Source: an uncultured Acidiferrobacteraceae bacterium (GTDB lineage: Bacteria; Pseudomonadota; Gammaproteobacteria; Acidiferrobacterales; SZUA-150). From it: a stretch of DNA of 64,000 bases. The position numbers and the translations under genes were made by a program. The notes under the pieces are model-generated. The model made no database searches, was not told the DNA's origin, and saw only the letters and a list, made by a program, of their open reading frames with translations. This document shows positions 4,785 to 59,545 of this stretch, piece by piece (the first letter of the stretch is position 1; each line of letters begins with the position of its first letter). The DNA lies in the NCBI GenBank assembly GCA_913009895.1, contig CAJVXY010000001.1, forward strand, positions 58,469 to 122,468. The letters are read 5' to 3'.

Positions 4785-4906
4785 CTAAGGGTCGACCTTC
4801 TGCTTCATCCCAATGTTACCGGTCACCTGGACTCGCCTCGCAACTGTTAATACATGACAGGATGGGGCGTGTGATAACATAGTCTCCAAAACATTGGAAA
4901 ATAAAT

Positions 4907-5491
4907 ATGCTTGAGAGGAATCCATTAAAAATATTCGAAAACTGGTTTAACCAGGCAAAAGAATCGGATATCAACAAACCTAATGCCATGACTTTGGCAA
5001 CCATGGATAATCATGGCGAGGCCCACGCCAGGGTTGTTTTGTTGAGTAGTTTTGATAACAATGGTTTTGTCTTTCATACTAATTATAAGAGTGATAAAGG
5101 CGTCCAGTTGGCAGCTAATCCTTCAGCTTGTTTATTGTTTTGGTGGGACTGTCTTGGTTACCAGGTTCGTATTAATGGACAAATCAGTAAAACAACAACT
5201 GAAGAATCAGATGCCTATTTTAGTGGTCGCCCCCGTGGCAGCCAGATTGGCGCCTGGGCATCAGCGCAAAGCCAGGTTATAAAATCACGCCAGCTGCTTT
5301 ATGATCGTGAAGCAGAGTTTGAAATAAAATATTTCGGGAAAGCGGTGCCAAGACCTGCACATTGGGGGGGTTATCGATTGTCACCAACCAGTATAGAGTT
5401 TTGGGTAAACCAGGAAAATCGTTTACATGAAAGATCATTATATACTCGCCAGAAAAGCGGTTCGTGGGAGCAAAAGATTTTGGCCCCCTGA
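4907..5491 (+). CDS. pdxH: Pyridoxamine 5'-phosphate oxidase
   Basis: 194 aa. LATMDNHGEAHARVVLL, FHTNYKSDKG and IEFWVNQENRLHER...LAP are characteristic PdxH blocks. Confidence 0.9.
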   Translation: MLERNPLKIFENWFNQAKESDINKPNAMTLATMDNHGEAHARVVLLSSFDNNGFVFHTNYKSDKGVQLAANPSACLLFWWDCLGYQVRINGQISKTTTEESDAYFSGRPRGSQIGAWASAQSQVIKSRQLLYDREAEFEIKYFGKAVPRPAHWGGYRLSPTSIEFWVNQENRLHERSLYTRQKSGSWEQKILAP

Positions 5492-5571
5492 CCAAATTAT
5501 TTTTGGGAATAAATTTTTCTGGAGTAAATATTCTGGTTTTTTAATTATTATTTTTGGCCCAGGCCTGACAC

Positions 5572-6633
5572 CTAGGCATTGCCGGGTTGCGTATGGTGTT
5601 GGGAAAAAATCTGCTGATGTAATAATTTAAGTCTCTGTGATGGCAAGGGCCTGTCATTTTCAACCAGCCTGTTTTTATAATTCTGAAATACATGTTCTGC
5701 TTCTGGTAAATTACCAAGGGTACTCAGGCAGCGCATGGTTTTTGCATACAGATTTTCATTGAGATTATCGATATCCATAGCTGCCCGGTACAGACTCAAA
5801 GCCGCATCTGTATCTAAATTCCTTTCCAGGGTTGTTCCCAGTTTAAATACTGTATCCATGATGACTGTTTTTGAATCGTGGGCGAGGTTTCTTCTCCAGT
5901 AGAAATCATCTGTACCAACCAGGAAATTATTAATATAAGTTGATATGGCGTTCTCAATGTCGTGCTTGAGGTCATAAATATCATCTTTAGTATCCATATT
6001 ATGGTTTTGTAAATCTTTCAGTATGGTTTTGAAGGCCAGCGTATCTACCCAGCATCGACGCCTGTTGAGTAATATTTTATCGCCCCGAAATAATAAACTG
6101 TCCACACCAATTATTTTTCTAAGCTGGGTTACAGCAACATAAAAGCGATGATTTTTTTTATCTGAGCTTCTACCAGGCCACAGGTTTTCTTTCAGTTTCT
6201 CGATTGAAAGTTTACCGTCGCCATTTGCTATTAGTGAAACCAAAAGCCTGAAGTGGGAAAGATTAATTTTTTTTGTGAAATTAGTGCGTTTTCCATCAAT
6301 ATCCAGCAATAGGTGATTGAGTATCTCAATGCGAACAGGCCAATCAGGTATGTCCGGTTTAGTCTCCAGTTCAATTGAAATAAAATGATAATCAGCAAGT
6401 TTCTTGCTGTATTCTGGTTCGATATTATATTTCAGTGCCCTTGACAGCAGGAAAGCAAGATCTTCGCGGCTGATTTCATATAGATCAGACAGCTCAGACG
6501 AAGCAGCAGCAGATAACCCGGCTTGTAATAAATCTTTGCCCTGTTGATTACTATCAATCTGTAGCAGGTAAATTGCTCTTGTCAGTGTTGCGACAATCGA
6601 GATTTTGTCATGTATTATTTTGTCAGACATCAC
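5572..6633 (-). CDS. Transcriptional regulator with winged-helix and BTAD (SARP-like) domains
   Basis: 353 aa. OmpR/SARP-like wing region (KNHRFYVAVTQLRKIIG) followed by a BTAD-like helical region (AALSLYRAAMDIDNLNENLYAKTMRCLSTLGNLPEAEHVFQNYKNRL). Confidence 0.55.
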   Translation of the reverse strand: MMSDKIIHDKISIVATLTRAIYLLQIDSNQQGKDLLQAGLSAAASSELSDLYEISREDLAFLLSRALKYNIEPEYSKKLADYHFISIELETKPDIPDWPVRIEILNHLLLDIDGKRTNFTKKINLSHFRLLVSLIANGDGKLSIEKLKENLWPGRSSDKKNHRFYVAVTQLRKIIGVDSLLFRGDKILLNRRRCWVDTLAFKTILKDLQNHNMDTKDDIYDLKHDIENAISTYINNFLVGTDDFYWRRNLAHDSKTVIMDTVFKLGTTLERNLDTDAALSLYRAAMDIDNLNENLYAKTMRCLSTLGNLPEAEHVFQNYKNRLVENDRPLPSQRLKLLHQQIFSQHHTQPGNA

Positions 6634-6851
6634 ACGTTCCTTGTAATTAATAGCAATGGTTTAGCAGAGCTTAGAATTATGTGGCAAAAATTACCGTGAA
6701 CCAGTTCACAAAAAAGCCCAGTCAGCCCGGAAACCCGGAGATTTAGGCTAAATCAGGCAGCTAGCCGGATTTTTACTATTGTTGATAGACAGGTATAATG
6801 ATTTCTTTCTTACCAGATCAGGGGCCATGTAGGGCCGTCGGGAGTTATATT

Positions 6852-7313
6852 TTGAACAAGGCAAGCAGGTATTTGGCAATCAGTTTTGTATTACCAGGCA
6901 TTTTATTGGCCGCTCTTATGACCACCAGTACACCATCTTTCGCAGGTGAGGAAGTTACGGTCTACAAAAGCCCCACATGCGGTTGTTGCACAAAATGGAT
7001 TGAGCACATGAGAAAAAACGGGTTTAAGGTCAAGGCCTATGACGTCAAAGACGTAATGCCTATCAAGAGAAAGTCAGGCGTAAGGCCGGAACAGGCTTCT
7101 TGCCACACAGCGCTCGTTGGCGGTTATGTCGTTGAAGGTCATGTTCCCGCGAAAGATGTAAAACGTATGCTAAAGGAAAAACCGAAAATCAAGGGTTTGA
7201 CCGTGCCTGGTATGGTTGTGGGTAGTCCCGGTATGGAAGGACCAAGCAAGCATCCCTACAAAGTTTTGACTATTACCGAGTCAGGTCCTGGCAAAGTATA
7301 TGCAGAGTATTAA
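6852..7313 (+). CDS. DUF411 (CopG-like) periplasmic metal-binding protein
   Basis: YKSPTCGCCTKWIEHM, ASCHTALVGGYVVEGHVPA and GLTVPGMVVGSPGME are DUF411 hallmarks. TTG 6852 with a GGAG RBS gives a clean signal peptide (the ORF track starts at 6798). Confidence 0.7.
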   Translation: MNKASRYLAISFVLPGILLAALMTTSTPSFAGEEVTVYKSPTCGCCTKWIEHMRKNGFKVKAYDVKDVMPIKRKSGVRPEQASCHTALVGGYVVEGHVPAKDVKRMLKEKPKIKGLTVPGMVVGSPGMEGPSKHPYKVLTITESGPGKVYAEY

Positions 7314-7325
7314 GTTTATATAATT

Positions 7326-8819
7326 TCACTGAATATCAAATTGCTCAGACCAGTTTCCTTTGGGCAAAAACTCGGCTATCTCCTGGACTTTGCTGGCTTC
7401 ATCCAGTTTGCCCATAGACTTAAGAATCTCACTTTTTAGTAACAGCGAGTTCTTGCTATTGGGCGCCAGGGCTACCGCAGTATTGATTGCTTTCAGGGAA
7501 GATTCATTCCTGGCATTAATATAATAAACCATGGCCAGGTTGTGGTATGCCTTCTGGTAGCTCGGGTCATGTTTAATTGCGGCAAGAAAATGCCTGGTCG
7601 CCATCTTGAAAGCTTTTCGTTGCGCGAACAAAACACCAAGGTCATCATGGGCTTCGGAATTTGACGGATCCAGTTCAACTGCTTTTTTCAAATCAATCTC
7701 GGCAGCCTTGAGTTCTCCAGCCCAAATCCTTCTTACACCTCTTTTTGTATATGCAAGCGAAGATTCAGGATTACGTTTTATGTAAACAGTTAAATCGGCA
7801 ATAGCCTTGTTTATCTCTCCTGCACGACCATGGGCCATGCCCCGGCCAAAATACGCTTCGTCCAGTTCCGGATCAAACCTGATTGCATTTGTATAATCGT
7901 CAATAGATTTTTCTGTTTCTCGAATCAATAAGTAGGCATCACCTCTCTTTAGATATAGCCCGGGGTTTCTTGGTGATAAATATAGCGCCCGGGTGTATTT
8001 GGTTATTTGTTTTTCTATTTCTTCATAGTCATAGATTTTGTTCAGGTTTGACAGGGTATTTTTTTTGTTTGGGATTATTTCATTGAGCGGGTGGAGATAG
8101 TTGCTTGCCGAAACAGGTAAGCCATCAAAACATGCCCTGTAAGTTTCCCGCACGAAGGTGTCTTTTAGTTCGCCAGCGTGATTGGGGATTTCATAATCTT
8201 CCAGTGAAATATCGACTGTTTCGCCAAAAAAATTTCCCTTGCATTGCTCATATATCCTTCTTCCAGAAGCATCAAATTGCCTGTACGAGCTCAGGCCATC
8301 AATATTTTTATGAAAATTTATTAAGGTCTGGATAGGGGCATTCCGGTAACCAGGAAGATAGGCGGCCAGGTAATCACGCACCAACCTGCCCGATTCATCA
8401 TATATATAAACTTCAACAGAATTAATGTGGCCGGGATTGGTATTAACGGTGGTAGTGCGCTGTTGGCGTACGCGCGTTAGGATTTTTCCGTTTTTTCTCT
8501 TGAAATGACTTGTCTCTGTGTAACTTAAACCCTGCGCGAAAGAACCACCATAATCACCACTTGCATCAGAACTATATGTTTCGTATTTCTCATGTAAATG
8601 ATCGCGCACGGTTAAGAGGTCATCGGCAAATTTATTCCATGTTTTGACTTGTGTTGTGTTTTCTCTGACGCCGGGTTTATTCTTTTCGGCTATTAACGCA
8701 GGGCTAACCAGGGCCAGGCCCAGAAAAAAGACCAATGACAGGCGAATGACTGCAAGTTTATACATTCTGGTTATCATTTTAGAATGCCCTGAAGATGAGT
8801 TTCTATTAGTATAGGACAT
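7326..8819 (-). CDS. Secreted TPR-repeat protein
   Basis: 497-aa ORF. Hydrophobic signal-like segment (LSLVFFLGLALVSPALIA). The C-terminal ~200 aa carry several TPR units (AYFGRGMAHGRAGEINKAIADL, AYHNLAMVYYINARNESSLKAIN). The true start may be an internal Met (about 8777). Confidence 0.7.
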   Translation of the reverse strand: MSYTNRNSSSGHSKMITRMYKLAVIRLSLVFFLGLALVSPALIAEKNKPGVRENTTQVKTWNKFADDLLTVRDHLHEKYETYSSDASGDYGGSFAQGLSYTETSHFKRKNGKILTRVRQQRTTTVNTNPGHINSVEVYIYDESGRLVRDYLAAYLPGYRNAPIQTLINFHKNIDGLSSYRQFDASGRRIYEQCKGNFFGETVDISLEDYEIPNHAGELKDTFVRETYRACFDGLPVSASNYLHPLNEIIPNKKNTLSNLNKIYDYEEIEKQITKYTRALYLSPRNPGLYLKRGDAYLLIRETEKSIDDYTNAIRFDPELDEAYFGRGMAHGRAGEINKAIADLTVYIKRNPESSLAYTKRGVRRIWAGELKAAEIDLKKAVELDPSNSEAHDDLGVLFAQRKAFKMATRHFLAAIKHDPSYQKAYHNLAMVYYINARNESSLKAINTAVALAPNSKNSLLLKSEILKSMGKLDEASKVQEIAEFLPKGNWSEQFDIQ

Positions 8820-9003: not shown

Positions 9004-9744
9004 TTGAAAGATAATCAGCCTACAATTGACAGGTTATATACAAAAAAATTACCTAGCGTTGATGATTTTAAATTTGACGATACAGTTGCTGGTGTATTTC
9101 CGGATATGCTCAAGCGCTCTATCCCGGGTTATAGTGCACTCATCAATCTTATTGGTACCAGCTCACGGGTGATCGTAAAGCCCGGTACACATGTTTATGA
9201 CCTTGGTTGTTCCCTGGGCGCGGTAAGTGCTGCGGTAAGAAATAATTGTGTTGATATCAATTATCATGGCATAGCCGTAGATAACTCCGAAGCTATGATT
9301 AAGCGTTGCCAGTCATTGTTGGATCATGAGAATTCTGAACCAAAAATAGAAGTTGTATGTAATGATATTCGTAACGTAAAAATTAAAAACGCATCACTTG
9401 TGGTATTGAATTTCACCTTACAATTTATTCCAATCGAGGACCGGGCTGCACTGTTAAATAAAATAGCTAACGGTCTAAATCCCGGCGGTTTTTTTATACT
9501 CTCTGAGAAAATAATTTCAGAGAATACAGAAGAGCAGGAGAAAATCGATTTATTGTATGAAAACTTTAAACGCGTGAATGGCTATAGTGAGCTCGAAATC
9601 AGCCAAAAACGTGAGGCACTTGAAAATGTTCTTATACCCGAGACTTTCACGGCTCATAAAGAGAGACTCGAAGTTTGCGGACTCAAGAATGTCCAGAAAT
9701 GGTTCCAGGTGCTCAATTTTGTTTCCATCATTGCGCAGAAATGA
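9004..9744 (+). CDS. cmoA: Carboxy-S-adenosyl-L-methionine synthase
   Basis: 246 aa, TTG start. FKFDDTVAGVFPDMLKRSIPGY plus an SAM-MTase fold (VYDLGCSLG). Followed by cmoB with an ATGA overlap. Confidence 0.85.
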   Translation: MKDNQPTIDRLYTKKLPSVDDFKFDDTVAGVFPDMLKRSIPGYSALINLIGTSSRVIVKPGTHVYDLGCSLGAVSAAVRNNCVDINYHGIAVDNSEAMIKRCQSLLDHENSEPKIEVVCNDIRNVKIKNASLVVLNFTLQFIPIEDRAALLNKIANGLNPGGFFILSEKIISENTEEQEKIDLLYENFKRVNGYSELEISQKREALENVLIPETFTAHKERLEVCGLKNVQKWFQVLNFVSIIAQK

Positions 9745-10715
9745 ATAATTTTTCCGGATTCTATTCAGCAATTAAAAATACTGAATTGGAAAAGTTATTT
9801 TTACCAGTTAAAGAACTGGTTGAATATAAATATTCATCAGAAAATCATGGCGATTTTGAAAAATGGCTGGAGACACTAAAATTATTACCTGCTTTAACGC
9901 CATCAGAGATAGATCTTGACCTAGGAAGCATTCTCATTGGCAGGGAATCTGATGGTAATCCATCACAATTGCTTTTGCTGGCAGAATTGTTCATGGAATT
10001 TTGCCCATGGCGAAAAGGCCCTTTTAAGCTTTTTGGAATAAATATTGATACTGAATGGCGATCAGACTGGAAATGGGATCGGCTTAAAAATCATTTAGCC
10101 CCACTGGAAAACAGGATCGTTCTGGATGTGGGCTGTGGAAATGGGTATCACTGTTTGCGAATACTGGGTGCTGGCGCAAAACGCGTTGTTGGCATTGATC
10201 CGACCTTACTTTATGTAACCCAGTTTTTGGCCCTGAACCGGTATATTAAAACTGATTCTGTCCATGTGTTGCCCCTTGCCCTTGAAGACTTACCGGAAAA
10301 CAGGCCGTTTTTTGATACGGTGTTTTCAATGGGTGTGCTTTACCATCGACGCGATCCACTGGACCACTTAAGAAGCCTGTCGGGATATCTTCGCCAGGGC
10401 GGTGAACTGGTATTGGAAACACTGATTATTGAAGGTGAGGGGTTAACAGTACTGGCGCCAGATGGTCGTTATGCAAAAATGCGTAATGTTTTTCAGATAC
10501 CAACAATAAAAAAGCTTGAGAGCTGGCTTAAGTCTACCAATTTTGTAGATATAAAGATCGTGGATATCTCAATTACAACATCGCAAGAACAGCGCTGTAC
10601 TGAATGGATGAAATTTGAATCTCTTGAGAATTTTCTGGACCCCAATGATAATTCCAAAACCATTGAAGGTTGGCCTGCCCCCAGACGAGCGATCCTGGTT
10701 GCTAAAAAGGGATGA
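9741..10715 (+). CDS. cmoB: tRNA U34 carboxymethyltransferase
   Basis: ATG 9741 overlaps the cmoA stop. PWRKGPF, DTEWRSDWKWDR and VLDVGCGNGYH are CmoB blocks. The ORF-track start at 9675 is an upstream in-frame extension. Confidence 0.85.
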   Translation: MNNFSGFYSAIKNTELEKLFLPVKELVEYKYSSENHGDFEKWLETLKLLPALTPSEIDLDLGSILIGRESDGNPSQLLLLAELFMEFCPWRKGPFKLFGINIDTEWRSDWKWDRLKNHLAPLENRIVLDVGCGNGYHCLRILGAGAKRVVGIDPTLLYVTQFLALNRYIKTDSVHVLPLALEDLPENRPFFDTVFSMGVLYHRRDPLDHLRSLSGYLRQGGELVLETLIIEGEGLTVLAPDGRYAKMRNVFQIPTIKKLESWLKSTNFVDIKIVDISITTSQEQRCTEWMKFESLENFLDPNDNSKTIEGWPAPRRAILVAKKG

Positions 10716-13348: not shown

Positions 13349-13939
13349 TTAGTTATTCCCTGGTGTTTCTGGCAGAATAGTTATCAGTTCCCCCAGCGCC
13401 AGTTTTATTTCCTGCAAGGTCAGGTGTGCGCCCATCATCGGATCATCCCATTGTTTGCAAGCTAGTTTGACTACATCAGGCTGAGTATCAGACTTCAGGT
13501 ATATTTCAGTGATATAGACCACTGCAGTGAGCCCACTCGTCCCTAAATAAAGAACAGGATAACTGGCAGTCATGTTAAGGCTTGCGAGTTTAGGGAACAG
13601 GGAAACAAAACCTTCGTCAAGGAAAACACGGGTAATAGTAAAAATATCTGGTTTGATGGTTTGTGTTGCGGCCAACCGGTTCCTGACTTCAATAACACAA
13701 TAAGGCCGGTAATTTTCAACCGGGTTAAGTTGTTGTGGTCTGGGTTCGCCATCCTGAATATGCAGGCTTGTCGATTCTCCAGGTATTATAATAGCCTTGT
13801 TGAGCTTGAGTTTTAGTCCCGGAGTGATAATTAAGGGGTAATTATTGTAACCAATTGCAACATTCCCGGTTTGTACCACGGCTGTTTGGCATGAGACTAA
13901 AGATAAATAAATAGTAGTTATGATAAGAAATCGAAGCAT
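13349..13939 (-). CDS. Putative lipoprotein
   Basis: 196 aa. Lipobox-like LSLVSC|Q after a hydrophobic N-terminus. Confidence 0.5.
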   Translation of the reverse strand: MLRFLIITTIYLSLVSCQTAVVQTGNVAIGYNNYPLIITPGLKLKLNKAIIIPGESTSLHIQDGEPRPQQLNPVENYRPYCVIEVRNRLAATQTIKPDIFTITRVFLDEGFVSLFPKLASLNMTASYPVLYLGTSGLTAVVYITEIYLKSDTQPDVVKLACKQWDDPMMGAHLTLQEIKLALGELITILPETPGNN

Positions 13940-14027: not shown

Positions 14028-14744
14028 TTACTTGTTTTTAAAATGGATAACATGTTTTAGGGGTGACAGATTAATTTCATCTATGACTGCGCTGCCTTTG
14101 CTGGCAAGAATTAACTTTATACAGTCAAGAATAGCTTCAATATTGATGCTGTTTTCATCTGCCTTTCCAGGTTCAAAATCAAGATTTTTATAAAAATCTG
14201 TTTTAACCATGCCCGGGTTAATAATAGTAATACCGATACCAGAGCTGGCGCACTCTGCTCGCAAGGCCTGGGAAAATCCACGTAATGCAAATTTAGAGGC
14301 ACAGTAAATACTGCCTTTTTTGCTGCCACGCAAACCTGCATCAGATCCTATAAAAATAATGGTTCCACGACCTGCCCGTTTCATTATTGGCAGGAAAAAT
14401 CGTGTTATGTAGGCGTGGCTGGTGAAATTTACATTCATGAGCGAGTTAATTTGCTGGTATGAATATTCTTCAAGGGAACCAAACAGGCCCATGCCCGCAT
14501 TGAGAATTAGCGCAGATGGTGAGAAACCATTATTTTTTATTTCCTTGAGTCTTGCTGGTAATTTGTCAAGATCGCCAAGGTCAATGTTGTATGGCGTAAA
14601 ACCGGGGAGTTTTGTCTGTTGCTCAAAAAAATTTCTGGCAATGCCGGTAACGCTATATCCTGATGCGCAAAGCTTATCAGTGATAGCGCGACCAATCCCC
14701 TTGCTGGCGCCTGTAACCAGTATTTGATTGTCAGTCTTTAACAT
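14028..14744 (-). CDS. SDR-family oxidoreductase
   Basis: 238 aa. TGASKGIGRA cofactor motif and YCASKFAL catalytic Y-x3-K. Last gene of a 4-gene operon. Confidence 0.8.
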   Translation of the reverse strand: MLKTDNQILVTGASKGIGRAITDKLCASGYSVTGIARNFFEQQTKLPGFTPYNIDLGDLDKLPARLKEIKNNGFSPSALILNAGMGLFGSLEEYSYQQINSLMNVNFTSHAYITRFFLPIMKRAGRGTIIFIGSDAGLRGSKKGSIYCASKFALRGFSQALRAECASSGIGITIINPGMVKTDFYKNLDFEPGKADENSINIEAILDCIKLILASKGSAVIDEINLSPLKHVIHFKNK

Positions 14745-14753
14745 TATATTTAA

Positions 14754-15740
14754 TTATGCACAGGGAAAATATATTTCATCTGAAATATAATTAAGTATGC
14801 CTGATTCGCAAAACTCCAGTAGTTGCGATTCAAGCTGCTTTTCGTAGCTTACCATGCCAGATCTTTTTTCCAATGGACCGGCAAATAATAATTCATCCGG
14901 GAAAATTTTCCTGATATTTTTAAAATATGTTTCGGGTAAACGAAAAGTGCCAAGACTAACCGAATGTAGTGATAACGCATCAATTTGACTAAAGACCTTC
15001 CTGAAAAAATCACTATAAACCTCCTTGTACTCATCTGTATAAATAACAGGATCAAAGCGAAGACCGATTTGCCAGCCAGCATGTTGTAATTTCACAATGG
15101 CATTAATGCGTTTTTCCAGGGTAGGGGCCCGGTGTTCCAGGGCTTTAGCAACTGACTCGGGCGACAAGCTGAAGGCTACGATACAATTAGCCAGGGGAGC
15201 CTGGGAAAGTAGGGTCGAGATTTGGGTGCTTTTGGTCCTGAGTTCAAATTTAGCGCTGGTATTTTTTTTAAAAAAAGGTGAGAAAAATTCCATAAAACCC
15301 GTTACTGGCTCCAGTGCCAGGCTATCGCAATCATAACCTGTGAAAAACCAGGTTTCTTCTCCTGACTTGCTGGTTATAGCTGTTATTTCATCCTGGAAAT
15401 CTTCGTAATTCACAAAAAGCACGTAATATGCCGAGCGGTACATGCCCTGTAAAAAACAGTAACGACAATCATAGAGGCAATTCAGCATATGTGAAAAGTA
15501 ATAATTTTTGTTGCCACCTATGCCGTAGGATACTGGCGCTTCTAATACAAAGTTTTTGAACTTCCTGGCAAGTATTAATGCCGGGTTTTGTTTTTGAATG
15601 CGAAAGTTCTGGGCCTTGCGGTTAAATATTTCCGAGTATTGTTGGCAATAAATAATTTTTGCATCTTTATAACGATTGCAGATTTTAAGGGTACGGGAAT
15701 GATCCCTGACCGATTCTTCAATGTAGATGGTATCGATCAA
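14754..15740 (-). CDS. SPL (spore-photoproduct-lyase)-family radical SAM protein
   Basis: 328 aa, TTG start. CLYDCRYCFLQG (CX3CX2C). N-terminus IYIEESVRDH and KRINAIVKLQHAGWQIGLRFDPVIY parallel B. subtilis SplB blocks. Confidence 0.75.
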   Translation of the reverse strand: MIDTIYIEESVRDHSRTLKICNRYKDAKIIYCQQYSEIFNRKAQNFRIQKQNPALILARKFKNFVLEAPVSYGIGGNKNYYFSHMLNCLYDCRYCFLQGMYRSAYYVLFVNYEDFQDEITAITSKSGEETWFFTGYDCDSLALEPVTGFMEFFSPFFKKNTSAKFELRTKSTQISTLLSQAPLANCIVAFSLSPESVAKALEHRAPTLEKRINAIVKLQHAGWQIGLRFDPVIYTDEYKEVYSDFFRKVFSQIDALSLHSVSLGTFRLPETYFKNIRKIFPDELLFAGPLEKRSGMVSYEKQLESQLLEFCESGILNYISDEIYFPCA

Positions 15741-15747
15741 CTTGGTA

Positions 15748-16587
15748 CTAAGAGAGCCTGACTGGCAGTTCTTTTATTCTATTTTCCAGCCAATCCAGGA
15801 CCTGGCCACTATTTTTCAATCCTGGAACTACGTTGGCAGAATTATTTTGGTTGGTGATAAGGGACAATCGTTCCAGTAATTTAACCAGTTGAATTCTCTG
15901 GTATTGAGTAAAATGATAATCCTTAGTCAGCTCAGTAATTGATATCGCTTTCAAATTAATGGTCGAGTGCTTATGTAGATTTGAGAGTGCTTCTATAATT
16001 ACTGAAATATCAGGCAGTTTTTTTTCGATTAATGTGCTGATTTTTTTGGCATTAATATTTTCAGTTGGCGAAGTTTTATTGTCGGAAATTATTTTATAAC
16101 ATTGCACCAATTCACTGGTCTGGTGGTTGATCGCGGCCTGGTAGAAATAAGCCGCCTCCATGTCATAGGCACAATTTTCCTGATAACGTTGCTCGGGGTT
16201 ATCTACGGTAATTAATGAAATTGAGTCAATTTTATTTTTACTTATCTTAATACCAGCTTTTAAATTCAGTCCAGTATTTAATTTCAACCTGGGCGGATAC
16301 CAGTTTAAACCATCAGGCCCCATAATTTTATGGATCATTCTGCCCTCGCCAACAGCTAGCTGGCCATGACCGGCAATGCCAATATTTAACCAGGCCGACG
16401 ACGGCTCTGTATGTTGTACTAACAGCTTAACAGCTACTGCGTTTAACTTTCCACCAACACCGGAGACCACAAGATTTATACTCGAGTTCTGATAAAGTTT
16501 GATTTTATCAACAGGCTTATGTTGTAACCCATAATGACTTATGAGTGGCCTGGCTTCACATTTCAGCGCACAAACAATATTTATCAT
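15748..16587 (-). CDS. PNP_UDP/MTAN-like nucleoside phosphorylase/nucleosidase family protein with C-terminal extension
   Basis: 279 aa. N-terminus IVCALKCEARPL, GIAG and YDMEAAYFYQ resemble the MTA/SAH-nucleosidase / HpnG-type fold. An extra helical tail of ~90 aa follows. Confidence 0.6.
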   Translation of the reverse strand: MINIVCALKCEARPLISHYGLQHKPVDKIKLYQNSSINLVVSGVGGKLNAVAVKLLVQHTEPSSAWLNIGIAGHGQLAVGEGRMIHKIMGPDGLNWYPPRLKLNTGLNLKAGIKISKNKIDSISLITVDNPEQRYQENCAYDMEAAYFYQAAINHQTSELVQCYKIISDNKTSPTENINAKKISTLIEKKLPDISVIIEALSNLHKHSTINLKAISITELTKDYHFTQYQRIQLVKLLERLSLITNQNNSANVVPGLKNSGQVLDWLENRIKELPVRLS

Positions 16588-17445
16588 TTACGATACCAGT
16601 TGTTCCTGATAATTTTCGTTTTTGCAGTAAGTTACCAGCAATGAAGAGTAATATTCAATATCATCGAATTTCCCTCTTTTGATAGCACCATTAAGATAAA
16701 TTGTAATCTTTTTTTCCAATTGTGCGACCACAAGACTTGTTTGTTCATTCGTTAGAAAATTACCGGCATGCAGGTTAACCAGGGCCTTAATTCTGAAGCG
16801 ATCCATGCCCCAGTATTTTCGGGACAGCTGATCTTCATGGCCACCATATTTTTTTATTAATGGTTGAGGTAAATATTTAACCGGGTAGCGGGCGCATATT
16901 TTCAGCCACATATCATAATCTTCGCAAGCAGGTAACTGCTCATCAAATAATCCCGCCTCGTAAAGTAACGATTTTTTAATCAATACAGATGAAGGCGATA
17001 TTGCGCACATGGGTAGGCAATGTTCGAAAATCCAGCCACCGTATTTCTCATGTTTGTCCATCTGGTTGACACGGTTTCCATTGCGAATCCAGATTTCGTT
17101 GCTATGGACAAGGTGTGTATCGGCCGGGTTATTTTCGATAACACTTAACTGTATTGCAAGCTTCCCTGGCAACCATTCGTCATCTGAATCCAGGAATGCA
17201 ATCCATTCATGGTTAGCATTTTGAATGCCCAGGTTTCTGGCAGCACTGACACCGCTGTTTTTCTGGTGAATGTAAACAACATCAGGAAATTCCTTTTTAA
17301 TCATTATGGCGGTGTCATCAGTCGAGCCATCATCGACCACAATTATTTCTGCAGGCCTGTTCGTTTGCATAGCAACAGATTCGAGCGCTCGCTTGAGCAG
17401 CGAGGCACGATTGTAGGCAGGTATCACGAGGCTGATATCAGTCAT
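16588..17445 (-). CDS. Family 2 glycosyltransferase (soluble GT-A)
   Basis: 285 aa. SLVIPAYNR, VVDDGSTDDT, DSDDEW (DxD) and CEDYDMW. Its stop directly abuts the next gene's ATG. Confidence 0.85.
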   Translation of the reverse strand: MTDISLVIPAYNRASLLKRALESVAMQTNRPAEIIVVDDGSTDDTAIMIKKEFPDVVYIHQKNSGVSAARNLGIQNANHEWIAFLDSDDEWLPGKLAIQLSVIENNPADTHLVHSNEIWIRNGNRVNQMDKHEKYGGWIFEHCLPMCAISPSSVLIKKSLLYEAGLFDEQLPACEDYDMWLKICARYPVKYLPQPLIKKYGGHEDQLSRKYWGMDRFRIKALVNLHAGNFLTNEQTSLVVAQLEKKITIYLNGAIKRGKFDDIEYYSSLLVTYCKNENYQEQLVS

Positions 17446-17533: not shown

Positions 17534-17962
17534 ATGACTAAAGCGATACCCGTAAAAATTGAGCGTAATAAACAGCCAATTACGCCAGAAAACAAATGTA
17601 CTTTCTGTCACGGCGCAAAGTGCTGTACCTATGTCACGGAGCATATTGATACGCCCCGCTCTATGGAAGACTTCGATACGCTCTTGTGGCAAGTTTCTCA
17701 CCAAAATCTTCAGTTATACAAGGATGAGGGCGACTGGTTCCTGCTGATTAATGGCTCCTGCACGCATTTACAACCCGATGGGCGATGTGGCATTTACGAA
17801 GTGCGACCACAAATTTGCCGGGAGCATTCAAACGAGGATTGTGAATTTAACCAGTTAGCCGGTGAAGATGATTTTGATCTGCTTTTTAAAAACTACACAA
17901 GCCTGGATACTTATTGCAGGAAAAGATTCAAGACCTGGGATAAAAGATTCAAGCGCTGGTGA
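17534..17962 (+). CDS. YkgJ-family cysteine-cluster protein
   Basis: 142 aa. CTFCHGAKCC ... CTHLQPDGRCGIYEVRPQICREH is the typical UPF0153/YkgJ pattern. Confidence 0.6.
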   Translation: MTKAIPVKIERNKQPITPENKCTFCHGAKCCTYVTEHIDTPRSMEDFDTLLWQVSHQNLQLYKDEGDWFLLINGSCTHLQPDGRCGIYEVRPQICREHSNEDCEFNQLAGEDDFDLLFKNYTSLDTYCRKRFKTWDKRFKRW

Positions 17963-18536: not shown

Positions 18537-19196
18537 TTAAACGGGTTCTGGCATGATTTCGTGAAATCCTTTAATTGCATCAAATTTCCCGGATTTTTTT
18601 ATTTCAGCTTTTGAGTCCGGGCGCTGAATGCCAAGCAGGTAGGCAATGCCATATTCCTGTGCTGTCTTCAAAACCGGCAGGCTATCGTCTATTAACAAGG
18701 TTCGCGCCGGGTTAAAAGGGTTGCTCTGCTGGTATATTTGCCAAAATCCGGTGGTTTCCTTGGCCAGCCCAAAATCATGGGCACACGTGATTTTGTCTAT
18801 GTGGCCAGCCAAACGGGTTTTGTCCATTTTAAGTGCCAGGCTTTTTTGGTGGGCATTGGTGACCAGTATGGTTTTAATATGGCGACTTCGTAAGCGGTCA
18901 AGAAATTCGATCACATTGGGGTGCATGCATATTAAGTGATTTATCTCGGCTTTCAGGGCAGCGATATCCAGATCCAGTTCCCGTGACCAGTAATCAACAC
19001 AATACCAATCCAGCGAGCCTTCGGCTTTGCGATATTTTACCGACAATTGAGATTTGGCCATCTCAAGTGTGAGGCCGTTTTTTTCACCAAAACGTTTGGG
19101 CACATGCTCCTGCCAGAAATGATTGTCAAAGTGCAGGTCGAGCAGCGTGCCGTCCATATCCAGGAGTACAAGATCGATCAGGTTCCAGTTTATCAT
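18537..19196 (-). CDS. yrfG: HAD-family GMP/IMP nucleotidase (YrfG-like)
   Basis: 219 aa. LLDMDGTLLDLHFDNHFWQEHVP, LDWYCVDYWS, LVTNAH and LIDDS track E. coli YrfG closely. Confidence 0.75.
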   Translation of the reverse strand: MINWNLIDLVLLDMDGTLLDLHFDNHFWQEHVPKRFGEKNGLTLEMAKSQLSVKYRKAEGSLDWYCVDYWSRELDLDIAALKAEINHLICMHPNVIEFLDRLRSRHIKTILVTNAHQKSLALKMDKTRLAGHIDKITCAHDFGLAKETTGFWQIYQQSNPFNPARTLLIDDSLPVLKTAQEYGIAYLLGIQRPDSKAEIKKSGKFDAIKGFHEIMPEPV

Positions 19197-19384: not shown

Positions 19385-20278
19385 ATGCATCGAATTATAT
19401 TAAAGTTATTTATATTAATAACCGTACTGGCGGTGAATCCTGTGCTGGCTGCACCGGTTATGGTTGAGCCAGAATGGCTCGACAAAAATTTGGGTAAAAA
19501 AGGTGTTGTCCTGTTAGACATGAGTAGTGAGGACACCCAGTATGAAAGATTCCATATTCCTGGCGCCTATTATTTTCCCTATCAAGTACTGGTAAAAATG
19601 GATAAGAAAAAAGGGTTTCCTGAGGCAGTGAGTGATCAGCGTATGGACAAAATTTTGAGTTATTTCGGAATTTCTGAAAATACGCAAGTTGTTATTTACG
19701 ATGATATGGGCGGGCTTAATGCCGGGCGTTTATTCTGGCAACTGGAGAGAATGGGCCATAAGCAGGTGTCGGTGCTAAATGGTGGCCTGGTTAAGTGGAT
19801 CCTCTCTGGCCGTAAAGTCACCAATGAAATTACGTCGCCGACCTCCGTTAAACATTTGCTAAAAGATACAACGGCCAGGCGGGAGAACCACGCAGATATT
19901 GAAGATGTCAGGGCTGCCAGTAAAGATTCATCGACAGTCATTCTGGATGTAAGGAGTGATGGTGAGTATTTGGGCGATAGTAAAAAGAAAAAGGGCGGCC
20001 ATGTTCCGGGTGCCAGGTGGTGGCCCTGGCAACAAGGGGTGGATTTTGAGAATGGTTTTGCCAGGGCAGACAAGAAAAGAATTGAGAAGTTATTACAAAA
20101 AGCGGGGATATCTAATAAACAAAAACCAGTGATTGTTTATTGTCGTTCGGGCCACCGCGCCAGCCAGACATATCTAACCCTGCGTAGTCTTGGGTACGAG
20201 AATGTAAAACTTTACGCAAATTCCATGAACGAATATGGTCGTTCAGGGTCAAAGCTGATACAAGGTAAAAAACCCTGA
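19385..20278 (+). CDS. Periplasmic tandem-rhodanese sulfurtransferase
   Basis: 297 aa. Signal peptide, two rhodanese domains and active-site loop CRSGHRAS. Confidence 0.8.
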   Translation: MHRIILKLFILITVLAVNPVLAAPVMVEPEWLDKNLGKKGVVLLDMSSEDTQYERFHIPGAYYFPYQVLVKMDKKKGFPEAVSDQRMDKILSYFGISENTQVVIYDDMGGLNAGRLFWQLERMGHKQVSVLNGGLVKWILSGRKVTNEITSPTSVKHLLKDTTARRENHADIEDVRAASKDSSTVILDVRSDGEYLGDSKKKKGGHVPGARWWPWQQGVDFENGFARADKKRIEKLLQKAGISNKQKPVIVYCRSGHRASQTYLTLRSLGYENVKLYANSMNEYGRSGSKLIQGKKP

Positions 20279-21294: not shown

Positions 21295-22107
21295 ATGATC
21301 AAACTCGAACAGAAATTACTAAAACAGGTTACTGCTATTGCCCGTGAGGCGGGCAAGGCAATAATTGAGATCTATCATCAGGACTTTGAAGTTAAGAAAA
21401 AAGCGGATAATTCTCCTCTAACCCTGGCCGACCAGGCAGCCAATGACATAATCATTTCATCCTTGCATAAATTAACCCCGGGTATACCGATGTTATCCGA
21501 GGAATCGGATATGATTGATTATGCGCAACGTCAACACTGGCATGAATTTTGGTTAATTGATCCGCTGGACGGCACTAGAGAATTTGTTAAAAGAAATGGC
21601 GAGTTCACGGTCAACATTGCCTTGATTTCCAATTCCAAACCAGTGCTTGGCGTTGTTTATGCCCCGGTACCGGATATCATGTATTCGGCCATGAAGGGCG
21701 CAGGTGCTTATAAAGAAGAACCTGGTTCGGTATCAGGAATAAAAACTCTGAAATATGAGGGTGAGTCGGTGATAATTGCAGCCAGTCGGTCACATAGTGG
21801 CGATACCCTGGCACAGGGTATAGAAAGAATTAAAAGAGCAGAAGGCGAGGTGAAGATCCTGTGTATGGGCAGTTCGTTAAAATTATGTCTTGTAGCTGAG
21901 GGAAAAGCAGATATTTACCCGCGACTAGGCCCGACCAACGAGTGGGACACCGGCGCAGCACATGCAGTTGTTAATTGCGCAGGCGGAAAGGTTGTCGACC
22001 TGCAAGGTAATGAACTAGTTTATAACAAGGCCTCATTACTGAACCCAGAATTTATAGTACAAGGCGATATCAATTATTCATGGATTAAATATTTTCATGG
22101 GCAGTGA
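21295..22107 (+). CDS. cysQ: 3'(2'),5'-bisphosphate nucleotidase
   Basis: 270 aa. MLSEES, WLIDPLDGTREF and WDTGAAHAV inositol-monophosphatase/CysQ motifs. Confidence 0.85.
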   Translation: MIKLEQKLLKQVTAIAREAGKAIIEIYHQDFEVKKKADNSPLTLADQAANDIIISSLHKLTPGIPMLSEESDMIDYAQRQHWHEFWLIDPLDGTREFVKRNGEFTVNIALISNSKPVLGVVYAPVPDIMYSAMKGAGAYKEEPGSVSGIKTLKYEGESVIIAASRSHSGDTLAQGIERIKRAEGEVKILCMGSSLKLCLVAEGKADIYPRLGPTNEWDTGAAHAVVNCAGGKVVDLQGNELVYNKASLLNPEFIVQGDINYSWIKYFHGQ

Positions 22108-54699: not shown

Positions 54700-55107
54700 C
54701 TGGTGGCAGTGCCTGGAAGAAATATAAGATATTGTTATCAATACAAAATATGAATGTTGTTAGATCGAAAGTCAATAAAGCCCCATGTTTAGGAAGGTAA
54801 GATAAGTCACAGGAAATTTATCTGACAAGCCGTTGTATTAAGAGAATGATTTTGTCCTTGCCTAAAATGACATCTTTATAATCAATATGTTAAGGTGGAT
54901 TACGAAATAACCTGGGACACCAGTGCCAGCCAAACGATCTATTGCATATAATGGCTGACACCCTCCAGGGCCTTGTATTTCCCGACATAATAGCAATTAT
55001 TTTTTTATTGCTGGGACCGGAGGCCCATAGATCAATGAGATTACGTGCCTTTTTTGGGCCTGGTAAATATCCGACATTTCACACCAGGAGGTACTATTGT
55101 TGCTGTT

Positions 55108-59123: not shown

Positions 59124-59545
59124 GCTTGTGAATATCAGAAATAATTGAAATTGGGTGTTATTGAGTGTTTCCGCACATACTAAAAAATAGCTCCTGGAAG
59201 CTGTTCCTGCAACACCTGACTGCCAATACGTGCACAAAGGTTCTCTACCAATCTTTGGTTATCAGGCCTAAGTTTCAATGGAAAGGTGTTTTTAACCATT
59301 TGGAGATAAAAATGACTTAAACACAATTGATATAATTGAGGAAATATTATGATATTTTTGGTTTTTTAGTAGAAATTGACTGGTTTTTTAGTAATTTTAA
59401 TGTATGAGGCCAGAAACTGGGTAATTTTAGCAGTTCTTTCGGTTTTCTGTTTTTTGGCCCAGCGGTAAAAAAAGCGGTTATTAGTAAGCTTTGGCTTATT
59501 ATAATCTTTCTAATTTGTTCTTTTATGAGTTGAGCCGGGTTTGGC

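Follow-up and report, generated by a model that had tools for sequence, protein, structure and literature searches.

In the window, by which we mean the whole 64,000-nucleotide stretch of an uncultured Acidiferrobacteraceae bacterium analysed here, four packed genes form a real and widely conserved operon. Its conserved core, which extends to Gram-positive Clostridia and to Fusobacterium, is a trio encoding an MTAN-like nucleosidase (NUC), a radical SAM enzyme with the fold of spore photoproduct lyase (SPL; the enzyme is termed rSAM below) and a short-chain dehydrogenase/reductase (SDR). The fourth gene, encoding a family-2 glycosyltransferase (GT2), is accessory, being tightly linked in the lineages of the window and absent or replaced elsewhere. 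Judging from the alignments, the rSAM keeps the residues for SAM and cluster binding and has lost those that would hold and repair a thymine dimer. No characterised pathway matching the module was found in database and literature searches, in agreement with the original prediction of a unit of uncharacterised function.

Organization and spread of the module

All four minus-strand ORFs were recovered where they had been predicted (Table 1), with spacers of 9 nt (SDR/rSAM), 7 nt (rSAM/NUC) and 0 nt (NUC/GT2) that likewise match, and their proposed domain identities were upheld by Pfam matches to adh_short, SPL and Glycos_transf_2 and, for the MTAN fold, by structural modelling. For the rSAM, the TTG start finds support in homologues of many phyla, which begin at the same MIxTIYIE N-terminus. 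A sequence scan revealed no transmembrane-like segments in any of the four proteins, which are not basic (median pI ~6.9).

Table 1. Positions in the window of the operon genes, the two parts of NUC and the neighbouring gene
Feature	Position	Strand	Evidence
GT2, soluble family-2 glycosyltransferase, 285 aa; heads the operon, accessory	16588-17445	-	PF00535
NUC, MTAN-like nucleosidase, 279 aa	15748-16587	-	AlphaFold model and Foldseek
NUC catalytic domain, residues 1 to ~175; predicted MTAN/futalosine-hydrolase-fold purine nucleosidase	16063-16587	-	AF2, Foldseek, alignment
NUC C-terminal helical tail, residues ~176-279 and stop; putative rSAM connector or docking module	15748-16062	-	AF2, fusion alignments
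rSAM, SPL-fold radical SAM enzyme, 328 aa, TTG start, C88-x3-C92-x2-C95	14754-15740	-	PF20903, AF2, Foldseek
SDR, classical short-chain dehydrogenase/reductase, 238 aa; closes the operon, belongs to the core with rSAM	14028-14744	-	PF00106
CxxCxxCC protein (PF03692), neighbour	17534-17962	divergent from operon	Pfam

This gene order is seen again in other phyla, and the arrangement is therefore far beyond chance. In a metagenome survey centred on NUC (80 loci; denominators are the loci that could be assessed), the rSAM gene lay directly downstream of NUC in 47/52 loci, GT2 upstream of it in 54/63 and the SDR after the rSAM in 31/47, and the complete set was present in 25/43. The four genes thus travel together as originally proposed, with the refinement that the conserved core is the trio rather than the full set. 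In genomes, 76 of 80 loci scanned (L007-L086) had an SDR orthologue directly after the rSAM, the two genes often overlapping, and Methylothermaceae B42 has the identical four-gene order, again overlapping. The trio was found in Proteobacteria, Chlamydiota, Gemmatimonadota, Acidobacteriota, Marinisomatota, Fusobacteriota and Clostridia; the SDR likewise follows the rSAM in Lachnospiraceae and Clostridium oryzae, and also in Fusobacterium, where it has the same length as that of the window and 34% identity to it. Some 60-70 Methylococcales loci carry the rSAM-SDR pair with neither NUC nor GT2 within 8 kb, three loci (L087, L122, L159) carry a GT2-NUC pair without an adjacent rSAM, and in two lineages genes for Cys-phosphatases lie inside the module. 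All-vs-all clustering of neighbours returned GT2, NUC, rSAM and SDR as the only recurring families, with no fifth family generally beside the module. The divergent gene, which had been described as YkgJ-type, is indeed a CxxCxxCC protein, but it was not kept next to the module in the compared loci and is unrelated to it.

The GT2 matches PF00535 (5e-34) and contains a DxD-type motif (FLDSDDEW). It reaches the cutoff of no equivalog model; the best near-full-length match is TIGR04283 (63 bits vs 182), the GT2 of the arsenosugar pathway, which gives the most complete subfamily alignment. Its nearest solved relative is a domain of the chondroitin synthase K4CP (98 bits), and orthologues upstream of NUC in the metagenome loci show 47-59% identity. 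Glycosyl transfer is recurrently attached to the module, through GT2 in most environmental loci and, in one locus (L177), through a GT4 without homology to it, encoded immediately upstream of a NUC-rSAM fusion. The SDR matches PF00106 (1e-40) and carries the TGxxxGIG, NAG and YxxxK motifs; none of the SDR equivalog models was matched above its cutoff.

NUC and rSAM, a nucleosidase and its SPL-fold partner

A Pfam search with the 279-aa NUC gave no match, and among NCBIfam models only those for futalosine hydrolase (the best curated match, but weak, with scores of 21-35 bits where the cutoff is 125 and 21 bits for the protein of the window) and MTAN were hit. Its AlphaFold model (pLDDT 89.7) nevertheless retrieved MTANs, the futalosine hydrolase of H. 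pylori and Chlamydia CT263 as best Foldseek matches (probability 1.0, 14-21% identity). Residues E11, D142-M143-E144 and S168-D169 are invariant across 47 homologues and align with MTAN E12, M173/E174 and S196/D197; the catalytic residues are retained by 38-40 of 41 diverse family members, fusions included, and L8 and M143 contribute a conserved hydrophobic 5' pocket. By this alignment NUC keeps all residues needed to split adenine from ribose in a 5'-substituted adenosine whose 2',3'-hydroxyls are free, which, together with the modelled fold, supports the earlier assignment as a genuine MTAN-type adenine-releasing enzyme. Fusobacterium and Clostridia generally possess a housekeeping MTAN too; where it is present, a second, dedicated MTAN suggests a specific substrate.

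NUC and rSAM are obligate partners, being adjacent or overlapping in ~90% of loci and joined into one protein in many lineages. Such fusions account for 42 of 150 diverse representatives (50% identity) and occur throughout the F. nucleatum group as a 623-aa protein, with NUC N-terminal and rSAM C-terminal. The extra C-terminal domain of NUC, originally put at ~90 aa, comprises ~100 residues (~176-279), all helical (helices predicted at 180-273, pLDDT 73-95), with a motif conserved family-wide (WHFTxxQxHQLxxLLxRW...LPVRL). In natural fusions the NUC profile alignment reaches positions 230-263 of ~272, which places the tail between the nucleosidase and radical SAM domains; rather than a mere extra domain, it appears to be a connector that would dock NUC onto rSAM. 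The linker of the Fusobacterium fusion is of similar length, with undetectable sequence similarity.

The rSAM belongs to the Pfam family SPL (PF20903; 74 bits, 1e-20, cutoff 27), contains the motif CLYDCRYCFLQG quoted in the original prediction and shares the CX3CX2C cluster motif with SplB (EC 4.1.99.14; G. thermodenitrificans, 4FHC-4FHG). Its AF2 model (pLDDT 88.9, pTM 0.89) matches SPL (4fhc/4fhe) over the whole chain, including a C-terminal beta-hairpin (TM 0.83 over ~345 columns, 16-17% identity), whereas the runner-up fold, PFL-AE, scores a TM of 0.49 and MqnE 0.46-0.48, a generic radical SAM level. Lys174, Ser195 and Arg273, which bind SAM in SplB, have conserved equivalents in K170, S191 and R267. 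Searches with HMMs and Foldseek thus confirm family and fold, but the equivalog level is not reached (96.8 bits for TIGR04070, cutoff 400; 61.8 bits for TIGR03886, cutoff 437). The columns of SPL Cys140, Arg193, Glu268 and Tyr98 hold Tyr136, Ala189, Gly264 and Phe96. Of 148 relatives, 143 have Tyr or Phe at the Cys140 column and none has Cys. Throughout the family, Ala/Ser and Gly take the places of Arg193 and Glu268, which bind the lesion in SPL, and Phe replaces Tyr98 in the clade of the window. The invariant pocket residues of the family are instead acidic or aromatic (D137, D139, D230, Y136, Y242, W/F223). A classical spore photoproduct lyase is excluded by the missing SPL-defining residues and by an equivalog score of 97 bits where 400 are required, which bears out the earlier doubt about a role in spore-photoproduct repair. 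The host, moreover, is a diderm and non-spore-former, and the rSAM comes with an SDR and with a nucleosidase to which it is obligately coupled or fused, whereas SPL has neither.

A candidate pathway and its known parallels

As the best explanation we tentatively propose, by analogy, that the operon serves no DNA repair but a self-contained pathway for a small molecule that centres on a 5'-deoxyadenosyl unit from SAM, with adenosyl transfer, adenine release, carbonyl reduction and then glycosylation. The proposal draws on the co-conservation of the four genes, the NUC-rSAM fusions, the MTAN fold and catalytic residues of NUC and the recurrent glycosyltransferases. The rSAM would cleave SAM and add the resulting 5'-deoxyadenosyl radical to a polar acceptor resembling a sugar or nucleotide, at an unsaturated centre or a heteroatom; NUC, docked via its helical tail, would strip adenine to leave a 5-substituted 5-deoxyribose; the SDR, of NADPH type, would turn the exposed sugar carbonyl into a polyol; and GT2 would glycosylate the product. 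Such a logic would parallel HpnH/HpnG/(reductase)/HpnI, MqnE/MqnB and ArsS-type arsenosugar routes, although the radical SAM scaffold, that of SPL, is unrelated to theirs. The MTAN/futalosine-hydrolase family supplies both known adenosyl-adduct hydrolases, MqnB and HpnG.

The hopanoid route (HpnH, adenosylhopane synthase, with HpnG and HpnI) also combines a radical SAM enzyme, a dedicated MTAN-superfamily hydrolase and a GT2, from families that are partly common to both, and a still-unidentified reductase is expected there between ribosylhopane and bacteriohopanetetrol. However, the rSAM is of an unrelated clade, NUC does not match the HpnG model, the module proteins are all soluble, and the module occurs in Fusobacterium, Lachnospiraceae and Chlamydiota, which are not known hopanoid makers; the seven largest window ORFs (483-802 aa) include no squalene-hopene cyclase. 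In the futalosine route, radical SAM adenosylation by MqnE (aminofutalosine synthase) is followed by a dedicated MTAN-like hydrolase, MqnB, which in some species is replaced by the housekeeping MTAN, a parallel to the NUC-less Methylococcales. NUC and rSAM resemble these enzymes at the low levels given above, the futalosine route lacks the SDR and GT2 of the module, and no other mqn genes were seen among the ORFs examined. With matches at the level of HpnG, HpnH or MqnE absent, both resemblances are echoes only, as they had been called at the outset. The ArsS route shares adenosyl transfer (to arsenic), obligatory adenine loss and a GT2-family partner, the one whose model, although below its cutoff, aligns most fully with our GT2; ArsS is of another radical SAM family, and neither arsM nor ars genes were seen next to the module. 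AprD4/AprD3 (apramycin C3' deoxygenation) and DesII-type lyases pair a radical SAM enzyme with a nicotinamide-dependent reductase acting on the post-elimination sugar ketone, but AprD4 has no homology to the rSAM (its model misses it), and these systems have no dedicated nucleosidase and are confined to antibiotic clusters, whereas the module is pan-bacterial.

Several observations run against the proposed pathway. SPL, the sole characterised member of the fold family that we could verify, is a hydrogen-abstracting lyase, and the adenosylating MqnE, HpnH and ArsS sit in other clades. The NUC-less Methylococcales imply that another nucleosidase substitutes or that the pathway can do without NUC. 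The SDR has its tightest link to the rSAM, a link that a ketone-making radical enzyme with a reducing SDR would fit equally well or better, and the Cys-phosphatase genes are left without a role.

Competing explanations and the likely substrate

The pairing of rSAM and SDR leads to a possible, though doubtful, alternative drawn from analogy, in which the rSAM would abstract hydrogen at a sugar or nucleoside carbinol, beta-scission of OH, NHR or SR would yield a ketone for the SDR, NUC would clear inhibitory 5'-dAdo, and GT2 would make or consume the glycoside. The net outcome would be a deoxygenation of the AprD4/AprD3 type or the cleavage of a C-X bond. SPL, DesII and AprD4 all eliminate a neighbouring group by beta-scission, and the rSAM has the SPL fold over its full length. 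The rSAM-SDR pair is the tightest and most universal, surviving without NUC in Methylococcales; the acidic and aromatic rSAM pocket would suit sugar hydroxyls, as the 5' pocket of NUC would suit a small 5'-deoxy group. 5'-dAdo inhibits radical SAM enzymes and MTAN relieves this inhibition. Yet we know of no other radical SAM family, though all make 5'-dAdo, in which an MTAN is fused or obligately coupled purely for by-product clearance, and such a role sits poorly with the extent of NUC-rSAM coupling and fusion, with the general MTAN already expected in Fusobacterium and Clostridia, and with the GT2-NUC pairs lacking an adjacent rSAM, which tie NUC to the glycosyl step too. An unlikely further reading is the O2-independent salvage or disposal of a nucleoside left over from SAM (MTA, 5'-dAdo or SAH), where NUC would act first to give adenine and a 5-substituted ribose, the rSAM would release the C5 substituent (e.g. 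methanethiol or homocysteine) by beta-scission and the SDR would reduce the keto-sugar. The trio would then need ubiquitous substrates only, which fits aerobes and strict anaerobes in at least 7 phyla, the unrelated flanks without transporter or regulator, the exact retention of MTAN catalytic and 5'-pocket residues by NUC and the domain order of the fusions, as consecutive steps; in Methylococcales a housekeeping MTAN could feed the rSAM. Against it, glycosyltransferases beside NUC in 86% of environmental loci and the Cys-phosphatases would have no role, LuxS/Pfs or AhcY routes make it redundant in several hosts, and for the C-S lyase chemistry we could verify no precedent.

Improbable, in our view, is the second of the two readings originally offered, an SPL-like enzyme that would repair or modify some base lesion of DNA or RNA other than the spore photoproduct, while NUC removes 5'-dAdo or trims an adenosyl-base adduct. 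The full SPL fold would speak for it, with its hairpin (290-299) and a tyrosine (Y299, kept in 124/148 relatives) near the base-flipping hairpin Tyr305 of SPL, as would a high degree of sequence conservation across phyla (52-62%) and a UDG-superfamily gene two genes downstream in Fusobacterium. However, the lesion contacts and the H-donor Cys are gone family-wide, the near-neutral proteins have no extra nucleic-acid-binding domain, the obligate partners are of sugar or nucleoside type (SDR, GT2/GT4, phosphatases) rather than repair proteins, and neighbour clustering found the UDG gene in no other lineage. Least probable is queuosine or 7-deazapurine recycling, with a nucleosidase and a queuine-lyase-like rSAM in the manner of QueK/QueL and the SDR reducing a cyclopentenone fragment. 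MTAN-type catalysis protonates the purine N7, which is missing in a 7-deazapurine, and GT2 would be left without a role. QueK and QueL are a known pair of nucleosidase and radical SAM lyase in salvage (PMC11130926, PMC11570991), and a HOMD table lists F. nucleatum genomes without queDECF and QueK and with QueL = 1 (PMC11130926); the genomes so scored carry the NUC-rSAM fusion. QueL is, however, listed solely under the generic radical SAM domain IPR006638 and no SPL family, and neither queK, qrtT nor a preQ1 riboswitch was found around the module, be it in the window or in Fusobacterium, Lachnospiraceae and C. oryzae.

Of the two original readings, adenosylation followed by de-adenylation and a nucleic-acid enzyme with 5'-dAdo clearance, neither was proved. 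As to the substrate, the evidence leans towards a small polar molecule and away from DNA or RNA, because the pocket is acidic and aromatic, Arg193 and Glu268 are lost, and the proteins are neither basic nor provided with membrane segments. The conserved core has shed its DNA-repair residues and most likely acts, along an uncharacterised route, on a small sugar or nucleoside derived from SAM.

Composition and conservation of the gene set

The four packed minus-strand ORFs of the original prediction were recovered exactly as described, with spacers of 9, 7 and 0 nt in the ORF listing of the window. The assignment of three of their products to a glycosyltransferase (GT2), a radical SAM enzyme of the spore photoproduct lyase (SPL, SplB) family (rSAM) and an SDR was upheld by profile searches (E-values in the table), the remaining product being the MTAN-like nucleosidase (NUC). 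The TTG start of rSAM is supported by homologues across many phyla, which share the same first residues (MIxTIYIE). None of the four proteins contains a membrane-like segment. No Rfam match to a riboswitch or other cis-RNA was found in the vicinity of the operon or of the Fusobacterium fusion described below, and a scan for promoters and terminators gave counts at the level of shuffled sequence and was uninformative.

Features of the window, with positions, strand and profile evidence
Feature	Position	Strand	Remarks
cmoA	9004-9744	+	tRNA cmo5U34 synthesis, over curated cutoff
cmoB	9675-10715	+	tRNA cmo5U34 synthesis, over curated cutoff
196-aa protein downstream of SDR	13349-13939	-	no family match
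SDR	14028-14744	-	238 aa; adh_short PF00106, 1e-40, 139.8 bits
rSAM	14754-15740	-	328 aa, TTG start; Pfam SPL PF20903, 1e-20
NUC	15748-16587	-	279 aa; no Pfam match, weak TIGR03664
GT2	16588-17445	-	285 aa; Glycos_transf_2 PF00535, 5e-34
CxxCxxCC (YkgJ-type) gene	17534-17962	+	PF03692, divergent from operon
GMP/IMP nucleotidase, YrfG-type	18537-19196	-	228 bits vs 189
Tandem rhodanese	19385-20278	+	housekeeping neighbour
CysQ 3'(2'),5'-bisphosphate nucleotidase	21295-22107	+	311 bits vs 229
Undecaprenyl-diphosphatase UppP	50486-51289	-	near B12-class radical SAM
LpxL-family lipid A late acyltransferase	52275-53156	-	adjoins B12-class radical SAM
B12-binding-class radical SAM	53215-54741	-	508 aa, no curated family reached
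Eukaryote-like Ser/Thr protein kinase + WD40 beta-propeller	56829-59237	-	802 aa
Eukaryote-like Ser/Thr protein kinase + cyclic-nucleotide-binding domain	59546-60829	+	427 aa

Two independent surveys show that the gene set is conserved, and they redefine the unit. An rSAM-centred scan of 185,579 species genomes yielded 80 loci at 52-62% identity, in 76 of which an SDR gene lies directly 3' of rSAM. Methylococcales make up the majority of these loci and have neither NUC nor GT2 within 8 kb, as is also the case for Methylomicrobium; the rSAM-SDR pair is likewise present in the genetically tractable Methylotuvimicrobium strains. In the ten loci from outside the Methylococcales (Ectothiorhodospiraceae, unclassified Gammaproteobacteria, Thermoanaerobaculia, Neomarinimicrobiota, Chlamydiae, Gemmatimonadaceae, Marinovum and Rhodospirillaceae) NUC lies directly upstream of rSAM, preceded by GT2 in six. 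The second survey, a NUC-centred scan of metagenome contigs counted over loci with sufficient flanking sequence, placed rSAM directly downstream of NUC in 47/52, GT2 upstream of NUC in 54/63 and SDR after rSAM in 31/47 cases, and found all four genes, whose co-conservation is thereby borne out, in 25/43. Methylothermaceae B42 has the same order with overlapping genes (GT2-NUC-SPL-SDR), while variant contigs carry GT2-NUC alone, NUC-SPL at a distance of 5 kb from GT2, or an SDR gene in divergent orientation. NUC-bearing taxa include Thiohalobacterales, Acidiferrobacterales and unclassified Gammaproteobacteria, names that come from three of ten sampled NCBI-sourced clusters. The SDR partnership is near-universal, glycosyltransferase partners are recurrent, and all-against-all clustering of neighbouring ORFs returned only the GT2, NUC, rSAM and SDR families. 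As the genes flanking this module across loci are unrelated housekeeping genes, it can be regarded as self-contained.

The divergent YkgJ-type Cys-cluster gene was also confirmed; its conserved membership in the module was not supported, nor was that of the 196-aa gene, since both flank it solely in the near-identical marine contigs L005 and L006 and are absent from all other loci. The YrfG-type, rhodanese and CysQ genes are nucleotide- or sulfur-related neighbours whose association with the module is not kept in other genomes. Equally unrelated to it are cmoA and cmoB, whose listed ORFs overlap by 70 nt; because the CmoB profile begins at residue 24-29, the true cmoB start is probably further downstream. 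The B12-binding-class radical SAM enzyme, which is unrelated to rSAM, scored 211 bits vs 750 for ApyD and 180 vs 481 for BchE, and its assignment as HpnJ was rejected (166 bits vs 577); it may be an uncharacterised enzyme of lipid or envelope modification. The two Ser/Thr kinase genes stand side by side.

NUC-rSAM fusions and the variable upstream slot

A tblastn search of PLSDB matched a 2.1-Mb Fusobacterium vincentii record (NZ_CP084075.1, L171) filed as plasmid pSB055A, which has one annotated feature and chromosomal housekeeping genes and is evidently a mislabelled chromosome. As this was the sole plasmid match and NUC had none, a plasmid- or phage-borne island was rejected; an anti-phage defence role was likewise rejected, as none of the four proteins matched the PADLOC defence models. 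In F. vincentii a single 623-aa ORF (L171 6098-7969) encodes both enzymes: its N-terminal part is a NUC domain (hhalign probability 99.3% for residues 1-164; BLASTP 29%), and its C-terminal part is an rSAM domain of the SPL fold with 35% identity to the rSAM of the window. It is followed by an SDR of 238 aa sharing 34% identity with that of the window. Genes for a YjbR protein, an MBL-fold hydrolase, a UDG-superfamily protein and 5-formyltetrahydrofolate cyclo-ligase lie around the fusion. The fusion is kept across the whole F. nucleatum group, where it is always annotated as 'spore photoproduct lyase (family protein)'.

We searched 1.84 billion cluster representatives exhaustively with HMMER and obtained 393 at E <= 1e-30; 42 of the best 150 are NUC-rSAM fusions (460-756 aa, 29-43% identity). 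The alignment of the NUC profile extends in many of these to positions 230-263 of ~272, and for this reason we regard the ~100 helical C-terminal residues of NUC (~176-279) as a connector of the two enzymes. The extra C-terminal part of ~90 aa originally predicted is therefore present, and it corresponds to the NUC-rSAM connector of the fusions; tail and Fusobacterium linker gave no alignment at the sequence level. Stand-alone genes occur in Clostridium oryzae (PNP_UDP-SPL-SDR) and in a very abundant gut Eubacterium/Lachnospiraceae cluster, where the genes for SPL, SDR and a NUC-like protein of 281 aa overlap one another. NUC and rSAM are obligately coupled, and physically linked in the fusions, and the core of the module is the trio of NUC, rSAM and SDR. 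GT2 can therefore be considered an accessory, with tight linkage in the group of lineages to which the window belongs.

Judged by their motifs, GT2 (PF00535, 118 bits vs 23.3; DxD motif FLDSDDEW) and SDR (VTGASKGIG, NAG and YCASK, comprising the Ser-Tyr-Lys catalytic set and the TGxxxGxG cofactor motif) are canonical superfamily members without a characterised subfamily; for GT2, with HpnI, TIGR04283, WcaA, TuaG and others considered as subfamilies, all 29 NCBIfam matches lay far under their cutoffs. The position upstream of NUC varies between lineages. In a single instance (L177) a GT4 sucrose-phosphate-synthase-like gene (4414-5889; TIGR02472, 308 bits vs 576), not homologous to GT2, occupies the same slot directly upstream of the fusion (6001-7800). 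Seven marine metagenome loci (L128, L135, L137, L156, L162, L165, L169) carry a conserved DSP-type Cys-phosphatase gene between GT2 and NUC (DSP-PTPase-like, 151-154 aa; PF22741, 36.5 bits), and gut Lachnospiraceae have a gene of the LMW-PTP family (PF01451, 118 bits) directly upstream of NUC (L172-L174, 4704-5168). The occurrence of two non-homologous phosphatases in one slot suggests a phosphorylated intermediate in some lineages.

Residue-level comparison of NUC and rSAM

NUC reached the cutoff of no curated MTAN, MqnB or HpnG model: its best profile match was TIGR03664 (futalosine hydrolase; 21.3 bits vs a cutoff of 124.7), with no match to Pfam PF01048 and none to the HpnG model at E <= 0.01. 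Its proposed PNP_UDP/MTAN-like identity was nevertheless secured by fold and catalytic residues. The AlphaFold model (pLDDT 89.7) matched >50 MTAN, MqnB and CT263 chains with a Foldseek probability of 1.0, among them MTANs, the H. pylori futalosine hydrolase and Chlamydia CT263. All of 47 homologues share E11, D142-M143-E144 and S168-D169, and the catalytic residues are retained in 35-40 of 41 diverse members. E11, M143/E144 and S168/D169 align to MTAN Glu12, Met173/Glu174 and Ser196/Asp197 (E. coli numbering), which are responsible for activating the water, binding the 2'- and 3'-hydroxyls of the ribose and protonating N7 of adenine. With these catalytic residues intact in the alignment, NUC should hydrolyse free 5'-substituted or 5'-deoxy adenosine. 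Fusobacterium and Clostridia presumably also possess a housekeeping MTAN.

In line with the predicted SplB affiliation, rSAM exceeded the Pfam gathering threshold of the SPL family (PF20903, 74.3 bits vs 27), which indicates membership at the superfamily level, and it missed both the equivalog cutoff of TIGR04070 (96.8 bits vs 400) and the cutoff of TIGR03886 (61.8 bits vs 437.55). Its AF2 model (pLDDT 88.9, pTM 0.89) aligned to SPL (4fhc/4fhe) with a TM of 0.83 over ~345 columns, i.e., the whole length, at 16-17% identity, and it contains a C-terminal beta-hairpin as in SPL (strands 290-293 and 296-299). The next folds were PFL-AE (TM 0.49) and MqnE (TM 0.46-0.48, the same level as other generic radical SAM folds).

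The SPL residues, with roles taken from the SPL structure paper (PMC3467042), were compared in a profile alignment to 4FHC/4K9R and in a census of 148 diverse relatives. The CX3CX2C motif (C88/C92/C95) is kept in 145-147 of these, together with K170, S191 and R267, the counterparts of the SAM-binding Lys174, Ser195 and Arg273 of G. thermodenitrificans (Gt). At the column of the H-donor Cys140 (Gt; Cys141 in Bs) rSAM has Tyr136, and the relatives have Tyr (135), Phe (8) and in no case Cys; two residues further on, a Cys is found solely in the clade of the window, with Thr/Ser elsewhere, and the column of the Clostridial alternative (Cys77/Ser76) lies outside the confident alignment. The thymine-bonding Arg193 and Glu268 correspond to Ala189 (Ala in 115, Ser in 25 of 148) and Gly264 (Gly in 142/148), and the radical-relay Tyr98/Tyr99 column holds Phe96 in the window and its clade (34/148) and Tyr in 109/148. 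As far as alignments and ligand-free AlphaFold models define it, the SPL substrate site has been lost in this family, and rSAM has the SPL fold, yet is not an SPL. Because the lesion residues are replaced, the invariant residues are acidic or aromatic (D137, D139, D230, Y136, Y242) and the family median pI is ~6.9, it is probably not a DNA-binding enzyme either.

Classical spore-photoproduct repair, already doubted in the original prediction, is thus rejected on the residue columns compared, including those of Cys140, Arg193 and Glu268. The view of the host as Gram-negative-like and not endospore-forming also held, as the window encodes AsmA, a TonB-dependent receptor, an LpxL-family lipid A acyltransferase and a T2SS ATPase; the nearest named relative is an Acidiferrobacterales MAG.

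Candidate pathways and their implications

We tentatively propose a pan-bacterial pathway, so far unrecognised, in which a radical SAM enzyme with the SPL fold would have been turned from the chemistry of DNA repair to that of small molecules and complexed or fused with an MTAN-type nucleosidase. It would be found in Fusobacterium nucleatum, in gut Lachnospiraceae of high abundance, in methanotrophs and in numerous marine bacteria. Either the ribose of SAM would serve as a building block or a SAM by-product would be recycled by new radical C-X lyase chemistry, and the product would be a reduced, often glycosylated five-carbon sugar derivative. The sequence of reactions that we favour, although it is still doubtful, starts with rSAM, which would transfer the 5'-deoxyadenosyl group onto an acceptor of polar nature; NUC would then release adenine, SDR would reduce the ribosyl carbonyl and GT2 would glycosylate the product. 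The same logic, with two of the same partner families, operates in MqnE/MqnB, HpnH/HpnG/HpnI and ArsS with its GT2-like protein. The echo of the hopanoid and futalosine routes heard in the original prediction thus stands as far as logic is concerned, and so does its placement of the radical SAM enzyme in another clade, as rSAM has no NCBIfam match to the adenosylating HpnH, MqnE or ArsS; the reported lack of shc holds for the seven largest ORFs of the window, none of which is an SHC. Membership in either route was rejected, with no matches at the level of HpnG, HpnH, MqnE or MqnB. In the futalosine route the dedicated hydrolase can be replaced by a housekeeping MTAN, which would also explain the Methylococcales that lack NUC.

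The main rival takes its cue from the rSAM fold: the enzyme would be an H-abstracting lyase or dehydratase and the SDR would reduce the resulting ketone, as in the logic of AprD4/AprD3, with NUC merely removing 5'-dAdo. This fits the very tight pairing of rSAM and SDR, and we hold it to be only slightly less likely than the favoured sequence; it hardly accounts for the GT2-NUC pairs without an adjacent rSAM or for the fusion to an MTAN, which to our knowledge is found in no other radical SAM family. Salvage of MTA, 5'-dAdo or SAH through a new radical C-X lyase would leave GT2 without a role and seems distinctly improbable, and against a nucleic-acid lesion or modification enzyme, the second reading of the original prediction, both the residue census and the partner enzymes speak, so that we give it very little weight. 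Least credible of all is queuosine recycling by the module, given that the queK/qrtT/preQ1-riboswitch context is absent near it and that 7-deazapurines are poor MTAN substrates. QueL (C. difficile CD1684, Q186P0) is filed under the generic IPR006638, and a HOMD supplementary table lists F. nucleatum with QueL = 1 and QueK = 0, no queDECF and no known Q-precursor transporter (PMC11130926). If it was the L171-type fusion that gave this QueL match, the rSAM family would be related to queuine lyase.

We found no study of this gene cluster in the literature, and no characterised pathway matched it in the literature, PADLOC, Rfam or plasmid collections. The components come from known superfamilies, and there are precedents for their probable logic; the scaffold with the SPL fold, the complex or fusion of NUC and rSAM with its connector domain, and the pan-bacterial distribution appear to be undescribed, and the chemistry, too, has a substantial chance of being new. 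Should adenosyl transfer prove true, it would add one more independent case in which 'SAM as ribose donor' chemistry arose, here on a new scaffold, and offer a candidate for the type of reductase that the hopanoid route still lacks, while a radical lyase acting on SAM by-products would amount to a new oxygen-independent salvage route. The natural NUC-rSAM fusions provide an experimental handle, as a single polypeptide from a cultivable organism. Members of the SPL family are usually annotated everywhere as 'DNA photolyase' or 'spore photoproduct lyase'. Our comparison shows a large cross-phylum branch of this family without the repair residues and wired to sugar and nucleoside enzymes, which includes proteins of the F. 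nucleatum group, of abundant Clostridia of the gut and of most methanotrophic Gammaproteobacteria, and for this reason thousands of database annotations are probably wrong.
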